NCBI GenBank assembly: GCA_963708295.1
Contig: CAVPSJ010000020.1
Span: 32,001 to 96,000, forward strand
DNA length: 64,000 nt
Direction: 5' to 3'
Source: an uncultured delta proteobacterium
Lineage (GTDB): Bacteria > Desulfobacterota > BSN033 > UBA1163
In this document: positions 39,709 to 44,928 of the stretch, piece by piece
Layout of the letters: every line of letters starts with the position of its first letter
Position numbering within the stretch: the stretch's first letter is position 1
The notes under the pieces: generated by a model
What the model saw: only the letters and a program-made list of their open reading frames with translations
Databases searched by the model: none
Told to the model about the DNA's origin: nothing
Translations under genes and position numbers: made by a program

Positions 39709-39953
39709 CTGGATGCTGGGAAGTCATCTTTTTCAGGTTGCTCAAAAATGGCCCTGCCTACGCCGAGGCTTCGGCAGGCAGGCAGATGCAAGTTGAGTCT
39801 GCGAAATCCCGTTTACGGGGGCACCCGAATTCTTTTGTAGGGAACGCATATATGCGTTCCCTAAGGTGATGTACGCCGCAACGACGAAGGGTGAGGGTAA
39901 CGCCGCAGATGCCTGCCTGCCGGTAGGCAGGGGCGTTTTCCAGCAACCTGTTA
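39706..39953. mobile_element. MITE-like repeat, family B (reverse orientation) with nested hairpins
   Basis: Spans from the TAG stop (39706) to the opposing TAA stop (39951-39953). Confidence 0.75.
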
Positions 39954-41099
39954 AATTCCTTTGGAGAATGGCTGTGCATATCCCGTCAATTCTGCATACC
40001 CCAACCCGTTGATCGGACTGCCCTGATATTTTCCTTCGACCTTTACACTTCCTTCCCAATAGGTCACCCGTGTGGATTCCTTGGTGATCAACTCCTGATC
40101 CTTGACCGTAGGCGAGAGGGTCAATTCAATTTGACGGGCCGGGACCGTTATCTTCCATTTAGAGGGATAGAGCGCTCCGCTCTTTGAACTTTTCCATCGG
40201 TCAAGGACTTCGATCTGAAATTCTTTCTCAGGGAGATGCTGATGGTTTCCGTCAGGAAATATGATGGTTCCACTCGAATAGGGATCGATTTTTCCGTCTC
40301 TATGCCGAATCTGATAAAACATTAACTCTATGCCATTATCCAACTGAATACTGAACCAATCCCACCCCAGCTGATATTCCCGGAGTTGAGCGGAGCCGAA
40401 TTCATGGTCCATCCAGCTGATTCCTTGAACAGGGACTTCCTTATTCTGTAAGAAGATCTTTCCTTCCGTTTTCAGGCGAGGGATGGAATAGTAATGCGAG
40501 GCAAATCCTTCTCCTTCGCCCTTCTGGCTAACCCCGTTTTGCCCATGGATCACCGGATTTTTGTCCGGTGTCAGCATCAGCTCCAGCCCAAACCTTTTAT
40601 CTCCGGCCTTGAGGGAGTGGTTTTGCATTGAAGGACCTTTCTCTTCGACAGACCAGTCCTCGATCCAGATTCGGAAGGTCTTTTCACCTGTCTTGTAAGG
40701 GGAAGCCCCTGCCTCGCCCAGGCTTCCACGACTGATCTTTTCAAGATATTCAAACTTTCCTCTGGATTCATCCGTGATCGCAAGATGAGCGAAATAGAGG
40801 TCGCGAATGGACCACTTCGATTTTTGTTGTTTTTTCTCCCTGTTCAAGCCCGTTCTAAAAAAGGTGAGTTGATAGCCGAAGGATCTTTTTTCTTGAGTTT
40901 GAGATTGGAGATGCCCGGAATAATACCACCATTCCGTCTTAAATTCAGGATGAGAAAAATGGTCTTGGGGAAAAGAAAAGACCTTTCCGGGAAGCGCCCG
41001 TTTGAAGTTTTGGCCTACGAGCGGAGAAGCAAATAAAGCAAGGCTCAGAAAAATTACAAAGCAGGCAGTCATTGCGAGCCAAAGCCGAAACAATCTCAT
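39951..41099 (-). CDS. AttH/CrtC-like lipocalin-domain secreted protein
   Basis: FPQDHFSHPEFKTEWWYYSG, FGYQLTFFR, SWMDHEF, GWDWF, YWEG, GYAELTGY. Confidence 0.85.
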   Translation of the reverse strand: MRLFRLWLAMTACFVIFLSLALFASPLVGQNFKRALPGKVFSFPQDHFSHPEFKTEWWYYSGHLQSQTQEKRSFGYQLTFFRTGLNREKKQQKSKWSIRDLYFAHLAITDESRGKFEYLEKISRGSLGEAGASPYKTGEKTFRIWIEDWSVEEKGPSMQNHSLKAGDKRFGLELMLTPDKNPVIHGQNGVSQKGEGEGFASHYYSIPRLKTEGKIFLQNKEVPVQGISWMDHEFGSAQLREYQLGWDWFSIQLDNGIELMFYQIRHRDGKIDPYSSGTIIFPDGNHQHLPEKEFQIEVLDRWKSSKSGALYPSKWKITVPARQIELTLSPTVKDQELITKESTRVTYWEGSVKVEGKYQGSPINGLGYAELTGYAQPFSKGI

Positions 41100-41391: not shown

Positions 41392-41529
41392 AATCAACCC
41401 ATTTGACTTCCGGTCTGTAGCCCGGGGTATGCCCCTCGGCCTGAGCTCGGGTCGAAGGTTCAGGGTTGATACTGAGCGGCGGTTTTTACCGCGATTTAGG
41501 ATTCGGAGTTTGGCGCAATCGAGCCTATC
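41392..41529. repeat. Repeat family D, copy 1
   Basis: GCCCGGGGTATGC..TCAGGGTTGATACTGAGCGGCG..TTTTTACC..TTTGGCGC shared with 50337-50447. Confidence 0.75.
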
Positions 41530-41707
41530 AACAATTATGTACAATTTTAGATACAGAAGCGCCAAAAACTGGTAAAAAGCCAGAACTAGGAGACCCGATT
41601 CCAAACAAATACGAATTTCGTCTATTAATTATTCGCCCCGGAAGACATGAATAGATACGAGAGAACTTTCCTTTTATAGATTTAGGGGACGTTGGTTCTA
41701 AAACAAC

Positions 41708-41736
41708 TTGACAGGTAGCGCGGAAGTATGTAAGGT
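41708..41736 (+). promoter_or_regulatory. Sigma70 promoter overlapping left TIR; predicted leaderless start
   Basis: TTGACA-17nt-TAAGGT ending 6 nt before ATG 41743; no SD sequence. Confidence 0.55.
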
Positions 41737-41742
41737 GGTTTT

Positions 41743-42741
41743 ATGCCGAGACAACCAAGACTGGATGCTCCTGGAGCGTTGCATCATATCATAGGCCGAG
41801 GCATCGACCGGACAAGCATATTCCGCACAGATCAAGACCGGGAGGATTTCGTTAATAGGCTGGCAGAATTGTCGATGGCCGGGGAGCTAATCGTGTATGC
41901 TTGGTCCCTGATGGCCAACCACTTTCATTTATTGCTTCGGACAGGTCGGCAGTCTATTTCGAAGAGCATGAGGAAACTTCTTACGGGATACGTCGTGAAC
42001 TTTAACCTGCGGCACAAGAGATATGGTCATCTCTTTCAGAACAGGTACAAGTCGATCATATGTGAAGACGATCCCTATCTGCTGGAATTGACGAGATACA
42101 TTCATTTGAATCCGTTAAGAGCAAGGATAGTTAATAGCTTGGAAGCCGTGAGAGACTATCGTTGGACAGGTCATGCTGCGATCCTTGGGAGGGTGAGGCA
42201 GGAGTGGCAGGATATTGAGGCAATTAGGGCCTATTTCGGTAAGGGGCGTCGGGCAGTTAAGAGATATGAGGAGTATGTGAGAGAAGGGGTATCCCTTGGG
42301 AGGAGGCCAGAATTAGTGGGCGGTGGACTGATACGTAGTTTAGGGGGATGGTCACAGGTGCTGTCGTTGAGGAGGAAAGGAATCAAGGTTGCATCAGACG
42401 AAAGGATCTTAGGGAGGGATGAATTCATACAAGAGCTTATGTCCGAAGCTGAGGAGAGAGAAAAGGAGAGTTTGAGACTGAGTCGTGAGGTTCCAGGACT
42501 ACCAACGTTGGCGAAGAGAATCATAAAGGGGACAGCGGTAGAGGAATCGGAGTTACGTTCGGGGACGCGAAAGAGAGAGGTAGCGAGAGCAAGGAGGCTG
42601 TTTTGTCAGTTGGCGATAGGGAAGATGGGGTATCCCGGTGCAGAAGTTGCCCGTTTTCTTGGGGTGACGACTTCTTCGGTTAATCGGTTGGCCGTTTCCA
42701 AGGAAGTGGTCGATTTAAAGAAATATCTTAAGTTGTTTTAG
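41743..42741 (+). CDS. RAYT-like Y1 HUH transposase with C-terminal DnaA_C-like HTH
   Basis: HHIIGRG, NHFHLL (HUH), GHLFQNRYKS, RYIHLNP (catalytic Tyr), AEVARFLGVTTSSV HTH. Confidence 0.9.
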   Translation: MPRQPRLDAPGALHHIIGRGIDRTSIFRTDQDREDFVNRLAELSMAGELIVYAWSLMANHFHLLLRTGRQSISKSMRKLLTGYVVNFNLRHKRYGHLFQNRYKSIICEDDPYLLELTRYIHLNPLRARIVNSLEAVRDYRWTGHAAILGRVRQEWQDIEAIRAYFGKGRRAVKRYEEYVREGVSLGRRPELVGGGLIRSLGGWSQVLSLRRKGIKVASDERILGRDEFIQELMSEAEEREKESLRLSREVPGLPTLAKRIIKGTAVEESELRSGTRKREVARARRLFCQLAIGKMGYPGAEVARFLGVTTSSVNRLAVSKEVVDLKKYLKLF

Positions 42742-42755
42742 AACCAACGTCCCCT

Positions 42756-43306
42756 CTGTTTACTAACGCCAAATCTTCATTCATCTCTAAAAGCGGACTG
42801 ATCCGATCCTCCCTGAGTGCCTTCACATCATTCACATTCACTCTTCTCCCCAGGTTACGGCTCAGAATATTCTGCAAACTATTGATCAGAGATGTCCTTA
42901 GCCTCACCAAGTGCCCCCGTTTCCTTAGAAGATCTCTTACCGGTCTCTCTTCCCTCGGATAAATGTAACCCTCTGGCAAAATCCCTAACCGCAGCATCTC
43001 CGCCAACCAAAACGCATCGTGTTTATCATCCGAATGCTTTAACCCGGAATATTGTTGAATCGCTGACGGATTGGCCAGGTGGACCTGATACCCGTTCTCC
43101 ATCAGCCCATCCACCATCCAGTACCAGTTATATGTCGATTCCACCGCAATCCCCACGAGCTTCTCCTGAAACGGCTTCAGTGTCTCTCGAACCAATCCAA
43201 TATCATTCGATAACCTCTTCTTAAAAACCCTCTTTCCCTCTCCATCGATGATCCCAATAAAATTGTTGTTGCCATGAAGATCACATCCCGCATATAATCC
43301 CTTCAT
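42756..43306 (-). pseudogene. IS110-family recombinase, N-terminal RuvC-like DEDD domain only, truncated at the TIR element
   Basis: GCDLH, AVEST, ANP, KHSDDKHDA, RDLLRKR; RBS AAGGAGG; C-terminal domain absent. Confidence 0.85.
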
Positions 43307-43410
43307 AAGGCACCTCCTTGGGTTAAGATTCGGCTCTTTGCCCAAGCATACCACACTCCGTGGTATGTTCAGATGGTGCCTTTTATATGATTATCAGGTC
43401 TTGAAATATA

Positions 43411-43683: not shown

Positions 43684-43815
43684 AACCCCATAACTTGCTG
43701 CAGTAAGTAATTCCCATCCCACTCATCTCCAGGCACGCCCCGCACGAACGTCCCACTAATCGGCGAACGTCCCGCTGACCGAATGATCCCATCTCGGGGA
43801 GACACCATTGGCACC

Positions 43816-44406: not shown

Positions 44407-44682
44407 TTAAAGCCTTTTCTTTATCGTATCATAAACCTTTTTTCTATGAATGATACCGAGTATCCAAACCTCTTCATCCACAATTCTAAAGACTACGCGA
44501 TAATCCCCAACTCTCAACTTCCAATAGCCACGGAGTGTTTTTCGCAATGGTTCACCGTATTGATGAGGCGCTGTCGTCAGCCGGTTTTCAACAGCGTTCT
44601 TAATGCGAGTTCGGAGCCTTGCGTCAAGAAGGGGAATATCCACGGTTTTCACATCAGGATGGTATCTGAGTTCGAATGGCAC
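44407..44682 (-). CDS. RelE/ParE-family toxin
   Basis: GEPLRKTLRGYWKLRVGDYRVVF..IIHRKKVY. Confidence 0.9.
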   Translation of the reverse strand: MPFELRYHPDVKTVDIPLLDARLRTRIKNAVENRLTTAPHQYGEPLRKTLRGYWKLRVGDYRVVFRIVDEEVWILGIIHRKKVYDTIKKRL

Positions 44683-44684
44683 AG

Positions 44685-44909
44685 TTACCAAACCTCATGA
44701 TGCTTCAGTGCCTTTGTTCTTGCGAATGTCCGTTCTCTTTTCTCCGCGAATGCCGAAAGCGCTCTATCCTCCTCGATGTCCAGCGCCTCTTTCACGAGGT
44801 CCCGTACTTTTAACGAGAGGGAAACACCATCTCTGCTCGCCAGTTGCTCGATGGTATGGTAAAGAGGCTTCTCCAGAACGACGTTGATCCGTGGGTTCTT
44901 TGCGGGCAT
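44685..44909 (-). CDS. RHH-type antitoxin
   Basis: PRINVVL..SLSLKVRDLVKEAL..ED, HHEVW; directly upstream of the toxin. Confidence 0.85.
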   Translation of the reverse strand: MPAKNPRINVVLEKPLYHTIEQLASRDGVSLSLKVRDLVKEALDIEEDRALSAFAEKRERTFARTKALKHHEVW

Positions 44910-44928
44910 AATTCTTACCTCCAAAGCT

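Follow-up and report, generated by a model that had tools for sequence, protein, structure and literature searches.

An intact TIRtron of an uncultured delta proteobacterium: evidence pointing to mobility and to ends outside the terminal inverted repeats

The genetic units called TIRtrons and their enzymes, the TIRYTs, were named by Di Nocera, De Gregorio and Rocco in 2013 (PMC3733652). According to the accessible text of that paper, they consist of a RAYT-like gene between GGGG-tipped terminal inverted repeats (TIRs) that can overlap the gene ends, and the TIRs also form moderately abundant families of solo, dimer and cluster repeats. Quentin et al. placed TIR-flanked Y1 genes with DnaA_C/HTH tails in TnpA-Y1 subclass 2.1 in 2018 (PMC6006769); in the available portions of their work this subclass ranks second in size among the groups of RAYT-like HUH proteins, and evidence of mobility is stated to be lacking for class 2 TnpA-Y1. 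Subgroup 2.1.2 is characterized there by an HUH-to-Y spacing near 58-67 aa and a C-terminal Bac_DnaA_C, HTH_23 or HTH_28 domain. It is equivalent to RAYT group 1 of Bertels et al. 2017 (PMC5581495), which in the accessible sections of that paper counts among the two most IS-like RAYT groups and includes 6.3% near-identical duplicates. For TnpA-REP, the parts of PMC3333891 and PMC8266576 at hand describe nicking of single-stranded DNA at a variable distance from the REP with formation of a 5'-phosphotyrosine bond, followed by recombination, and a nick-extend-rejoin model accounts for the tandem amplification of REPs. A literature search with subscription journals mostly outside its coverage returned no experimental study of TIRYTs. 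The available text of the cited papers contains neither biochemistry nor direct evidence of mobility for subclass 2.1; the element described here renders it testable whether class 2 Y1 genes transpose and to what the DnaA-like tail binds.

The window, i.e. the entire stretch of 64,000 nucleotides submitted to analysis, almost certainly holds an intact TIRtron, a member of this already described kind. A repeat scan identified a perfect inverted repeat of 26 nt whose arms, at 41684-41709 (left TIR, plus strand) and 42730-42755 (right TIR, minus strand), are 100% complementary; by our own arithmetic, about 5e-9 such pairs are expected by chance in the 7 kb scanned. The portion conserved in the family amounts to 25 bp starting from GGGGAC. 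The repeats enclose a TIRYT gene of 332 aa on the plus strand (41743-42741), supported by its open reading frame, Pfam matches, alignment and fold. Its stop codon TAG (42739-42741) lies within the right TIR. On the other side, the left TIR provides the first two bases (TT) of the -35 box TTGACA (41708-41713) of a predicted leaderless promoter (41708-41736, plus strand), in which a 17-nt spacer is followed by TG and the -10 box TAAGGT (41729-41736) and, after 6 more nucleotides, by the ATG. A consensus promoter scan made no call at 41708-41736. Sequence and spacing are conserved among homologues, the exact arrangement TTGAC-17-TA-6-ATG being kept in 25 of 33 homologues of at least 60% identity, and the distance from the GGGG tip to the ATG is 58 nt in 19 of 26 full elements. 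The perfect repeats around an HUH gene and their overlap with the -35 box and the stop codon had all been reported in a preliminary description made from the sequence, and are confirmed. The novelty implied by that description does not stand, since the kind of element had been named in 2013 and classified in 2018. Its proviso that the element might match an already described IS family is borne out in part, because the kind is described, though not as a curated IS family in the accessible text of the cited papers. What is added here to the described TIRtrons is evidence on mobility and the anatomy of the ends.

The product of the gene matches Y1_Tnp (E 1.2e-10), Bac_DnaA_C (E 0.0025, below the cut-off of this family) and REP_Tyr_transpos (E 2e-15, below the equivalog cut-off). 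It displays the HUH motif H60-F-H62 and a catalytic-type Y119 within Y-I-H-L-N-P, i.e. the class 2 Y---NP motif (Y119-IHL-N123-P124), with an HUH-to-Y distance of 57-59 aa; H60, H62, Y119, N123 and P124 are invariant across 26 full elements. The core is followed by W141-T-G-H (family consensus W-x-G-H), at the place where subclass 2.1.2 carries a conserved serine motif. The C-terminus, from about aa 253 to 318, resembles the HTH of DnaA domain IV: the profile of a 123-sequence alignment matches DnaA domain IV chains (E 6.7e-7), and Bac_DnaA_C is found in 76 of the 123 aligned homologues. The structure model, with a pLDDT of 86.5 when folded from the alignment and 38.7 from the single sequence, is closest to E. 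coli TnpA-REP (4er8, E 1.8e-5) and also matches DnaA domain IV (1j1v, rmsd 2.7), while a PDB search with the single sequence returned a chance match only. Comparison with the C4 copy reveals 83 synonymous and 49 non-synonymous codon differences; such purifying selection points to a maintained enzyme.

As in the units described by Di Nocera et al., a RAYT-like gene is thus framed by GGGG-tipped TIRs that overlap its ends. The tip GGGGACGT agrees with GGGGWSAS, which PMC3733652 gives for some or most TIRtrons, not all, at 6 of 8 positions, and the accessible text of that paper is without junctions, outer tails, tip duplications or promoter overlap. The Y---NP motif, the C-terminal Bac_DnaA_C/HTH domain and the lack of REP hairpins are shared with subclass 2.1.2 as portrayed in the available parts of PMC6006769. 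REPtrons and their TnpA-REP possess the same catalytic fold, 4er8 being the best match; unlike them, the window TIRtron has no GTAG guide or stable hairpin, carries an extra HTH and displays symmetrical ends that hug the gene, and no GTAG-tagged palindromic REP of the type of REPtrons (subclasses 2.2/2.5) adjoins the TIRYT gene. The IS200/IS605 elements (IS608, ISDra2) share the Y1 HUH fold and the absence of target duplication. They have asymmetric subterminal hairpins without TIRs, fixed cleavage sites set by guides and a short TnpA with a Y---Q motif, in contrast to the perfect TIRs, variable ends and 332-aa Y---NP enzyme of the window element. An imperfect GTTG..CAAC hairpin had been noted in each TIR. 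It is worth only -2.5 kcal/mol, and in 14 of 27 full elements both ends carry an uncompensated T-to-A change (GTAGG) that breaks it; the variable T/A position is the same at both ends in 26 of the 27. In view of this weak fold and uncompensated breakage, the hairpin is probably not functional and was rejected as a candidate signal.

The right-hand junction of the element can be placed to the base, since an identical target is available in uncut form. The 5' half of an IS110-family element occupies 42763-43410 on the minus strand, as established by Pfam, alignments of homologues and an intact contig. Its open reading frame starts at 43306 and is cut near codon 181 of 340, and its outer end lies at about 43400-43410; insertion of the IS110 into another TIR near 43390 was considered and rejected, the sequence there being the IS110's own end. 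Alignments with intact IS110 homologues end at 42763. A contig found in one public run shows zero differences over 42763-42998, continues as an intact IS110 and diverges from the window exactly at 42763, so that 7 foreign bases lie between the TIR and a precisely cut, undiverged target. These bases (42756-42762) are not from IS110 and, as judged from the intact contig and from junction and tail comparisons, would be part of the mobile unit. The right end had been said to cut an IS110 gene; a truncated IS110 is indeed present, with the break at 42762|42763, 7 nt outside the TIR and not at its edge. The missing 3' half, as had also been stated, is not on the left side, and it occurs nowhere in the 91%-complete genome. 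The TIRtron likely deleted half of the neighbouring IS110 gene, in keeping with the adjacent deletions previously proposed. No target duplication was found at the locus, as had been reported. The TIRs are likely not the exact ends of the mobile unit, the true ends being farther out. To the left, 50 nt (41634-41683) separate an attI-like site from the left TIR and may consist of a truncated cassette start and the left tail; no homologue of this segment was found.

Further copies, solo TIRs and empty sites were looked for. The genome of the element contains a second full copy at 84.5% identity, a left part at 93% that lies close to the end of a contig and has frameshifts that may stem from decay or from assembly error, and a miniature of roughly 100 bp, for 14 TIR sites in all. 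Further TIRtron subtypes are present as well, each with its own repeats, and one such sibling resides at two unrelated sites with 99.15% identity over 1063 nt. The TIR was detected in 33 of 55 genomes of the family with 0-35 matches each (reversed-pattern control: 0), and a metagenome scan recovered at least 127 stretches. Its occurrences at unrelated sites comprise full copies, miniatures and solo ends; of the 60 two-ended units, 27 measure about 1.1 kb and 33 less than 400 bp. A protein search returned 40 loci, with titles mostly of Deltaproteobacteria or Thermodesulfobacteriota. TIRs surround the gene in 17 of the 26 loci with long matches that were examined, and contig ends cut 7 of the other 9. 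The wider count, 34 of 39 homologues with TIRs, is partly circular because many loci were fetched via the TIR pattern. Full copies inside one genome are mostly 80-85% identical. The L175/L178 pair is 99.9% identical and may be a single locus, both sequences ending at contig ends; L176 is 96.7% identical to the pair, with a different left flank and a shared 9-nt tail.

It could be argued that the system is domesticated and REPtron-like, with a gene that is static or transferred horizontally at the level of the host, an enzyme that spreads only single ends and small derivatives in the manner of REPs and BIMEs, and full copies that are old paralogues. Most TIR matches are solo or miniature, as such a system predicts, and none of 72,556 plasmid records contained a full-length homologue (80% query coverage). 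We nevertheless regard domestication as unlikely: full elements have unrelated flanks (L175/L178 aside), the distribution is patchy, the gene is packed in a fixed 1,070-bp unit, and both the sibling TIRtron at two sites and the relation of L176 to L175/L178 run counter to a static gene, as does the proportion of duplicates reported for group 1 RAYTs in the accessible part of Bertels et al. 2017 (PMC5581495). The homologues are thus neither devoid of TIRs nor single-copy and syntenic. The full units are likely mobile, being multi-copy and non-syntenic and accompanied by miniature derivatives and solo ends. The autonomous TIR-bounded HUH element of the preliminary description is accordingly retained as an intact unit and revised as to its boundaries.

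Several arrangements were noted among these copies. In contig C6 of the element's own genome (G000), positions 70100-72200 form a nest of three mobile elements, in which the frameshifted left part is followed by the sibling TIRtron, which is 99.15% identical to the C16 copy and is itself interrupted in its right repeat by another IS-like element. Genome G014 (L293, L295, L297, L303), with about 35 TIR matches, displays a burst of a miniature derivative of 228 bp and would supply natural substrates well. TIR ends are joined into other TIRYT genes at L070 and L107; at L174, the sequence into which the TIR end is joined is homologous to the integrase locus L219. These joins suggest frequent local re-insertion.

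In order to locate the ends, the bases outside the TIRs were compared across the family. Among pairs of near-identical ends (inner 60 nt at 95% identity or more) with unrelated flanks, 26 of 47 share at least 5 outer bases, as against 418 of 33,881 unrelated pairs (1.2%); counted by end family the figure is 15 of 26. Fewer than 5 outer bases are shared in the remaining 21 of the 47 close pairs, and identity between near-identical ends falls beyond position -6. Comparison with uninterrupted homologues provided 16 well-aligned junctions, preselected for a gap of at most 30 nt from the TIR, in which the target stops 2-30 nt from the GGGG tip and never at 0 or 1; the homologues are 84-100% identical and diverged ones stop aligning early, so that these positions are approximate. 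The last target base is G in 5 cases, T in 5, A in 3 and C in 3. Such a lack of preference allows no cleavage dinucleotide to be named, and a purine or C|T-like cleavage rule, tried as a candidate, is unsupported at the 16 junctions; the C|T preference of TnpA-REP is thus not seen here.

An ordinary two-ended IS with exact ends at the TIR would require the outer bases to be a target preference and the loss of the IS110 half to be an unrelated later deletion. Over 165 flanks there is indeed a purine bias beyond the TIR (R at -1 in 96%, A at -5 in 64%, R at -6 in 87%) that could represent a target consensus, and one miniature, described below, sits between syntenic genes. The bias alone would yield only 1.2% sharing of at least 5 nt, versus the 55% seen, and tails that deviate from the consensus, such as GTTTA, are shared too. 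With no junction out of 16 at position 0-1, and with the IS110 break 7 nt out, devoid of microhomology and showing zero divergence from the intact IS110, ends fixed at the TIR appear quite improbable. We consider it fairly likely, on the contrary, that the enzyme cuts 5-12 bases outside each repeat and that the element is active and mobile.

A second feature of the ends is the presence of tandem copies of the tail and repeat tip (10-23 nt) at 17 of 276 ends, 7 of the 17 stopping after GGGGACG, while controls at four offsets gave 0-1 of about 265. The end rules observed family-wide thus comprise a carried tail of 5-12 nt, tip duplications ending after GGGGACG and ends that vary together. The variable-distance cleavage and tandem amplification of TnpA-REP, as described in the available parts of PMC3333891 and PMC8266576, serve as a model for these tails and duplications. 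Reciprocal products without the GGGGACG tip are scarce: of 250 inner-TIR matches only 3 are of this form, and two of these share the same flank.

Movement of the TIRs in trans by an unrelated DDE transposase, with the Y1 gene as mere cargo, was weighed as well. Perfect TIRs are typical of DDE elements, GGGG-tipped ends recall those of Tn3-type elements, and the genome is rich in other IS. The 30-nt flanks of 49 two-ended units contain, however, no fixed target duplication, the longest repeats being of 7 nt and scattered; a duplication below 5 nt at unmapped tail ends would escape this survey, which extends to the family the absence of duplication noted at the locus. Each TIRYT subtype possesses its own TIR type, the HUH and Tyr residues are invariant in all 26 full elements, and variable ends with tip duplications fit HUH chemistry. 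A DDE enzyme acting in trans is therefore a very improbable explanation, and the TIRYT itself is the preferred agent.

The question of whether one end or two are used was approached through targets. A flank with an uninterrupted homologue is available for 10 of the 60 two-ended units, and the target continues across the element in none of the 10, a count that excludes one 31-nt repeat match 1 kb away and that concerns mosaic regions, where later rearrangement is common. For the full elements L258 and L272, homologues of the two flanks were on different contigs or absent. The 377-bp miniature L237 sits in the spacer of two genes that relatives keep side by side, which indicates that insertion without gene loss also happens; in 7 relatives this spacer measures 51-264 bp, too variable for an exact empty site to be obtained, and on one side it is made up of tip duplications. 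The search for empty sites thus yielded no exact one for any element, whereas copies, miniatures and solo ends were found. Whole-unit insertion and adjacent deletion both seem to occur.

A mechanism can be proposed on these grounds. The C-terminal HTH would recognize the double-stranded inner half of each repeat; bound there, it would extend over the -35 box as well and repress the TIRYT gene. Beyond the GGGGAC tip, at a spacing that can vary, the HUH domain would nick DNA that is transiently single-stranded, with formation of a 5'-phosphotyrosine as in TnpA-REP. Strand transfer would link the tail to a target, showing little preference for its sequence and creating no duplication. If both ends were active, the whole unit or a miniature derivative would arrive at a new site; one end acting alone or repeatedly would produce a solo repeat or the loss of adjacent DNA, as may have befallen the IS110. 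A nick within the repeat tip, short copying and re-joining could generate the 10-23-nt tandem duplications in the manner of model 7B for REP/BIME. Such HTH-aimed HUH chemistry would account together for the carried tails, the absent target duplication, the tip duplications and the IS110 cut. Binding of the HTH to the TIR and autorepression, both already put forward in the preliminary description, are inferences. Among elements that carry this inner TIR the recognition helix hardly varies; in L193, L194, C12 and C14, whose inner TIRs are of other types, the helix is different, a co-variation confounded by shared descent. Autorepression is proposed because the TIR and the -35 box overlap.

We tentatively put forward, as a possibility that falls somewhat short of an even chance, that TIRtrons constitute an uncatalogued autonomous IS family combining HUH single-strand chemistry with double-strand recognition of the TIR by a DnaA-like HTH. 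Their ends would be unfixed, with a cut 5-12 nt outside the repeat at each event, and routinely used one at a time. They would act as engines of local deletion and rearrangement that seed MITE and REP-like families, and the domesticated RAYTs would have their mobile counterpart in them. Mobility of the window TIRtron, for which the locus offers a compact intact element, would if confirmed add a third way for Y1 enzymes to move to those of IS200/IS605 and REP/BIME.

The surroundings of the element are composite. The segment 41527-41633 (plus strand) is likely an attI remnant devoid of intI: its homologue adjoins an integron integrase in 3 of 3 loci tested (of 19), and in relatives the homologous stretch ends at a GTT core, ATT in the window, followed by varied genes; most relatives have GTT. 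Just past the IS110 end, 43438-43574 matches a group II intron D1-D4 fragment (Rfam RF02003, 32.6 bits, below the gathering score). At 43745-43781 (minus strand), two tandem GGGACGTTCG units resemble the TIR of a more distant TIRtron subtype (cf. L016), likely a solo end with a tip duplication. The intron fragment and the duplicated solo end mark this region as plastic, which weakens any deletion argument drawn from one locus. Toxin-antitoxin-like ORF pairs, judged by eye from translations, lie near several TIR sites, at 44407-44924 (minus strand) in the window and at C17:139693-142067, C17:278794, C13:14500 and C8:168001 in genome G000. The mean GC content is 46.8% around TIR sites and 50.0% in the genome as a whole. 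Finally, two further repeats were noted at 39729-39955 and 41400-41500, a long inverted one with imperfect arms and a short dispersed one, of a kind scattered through the spacers of this genome.
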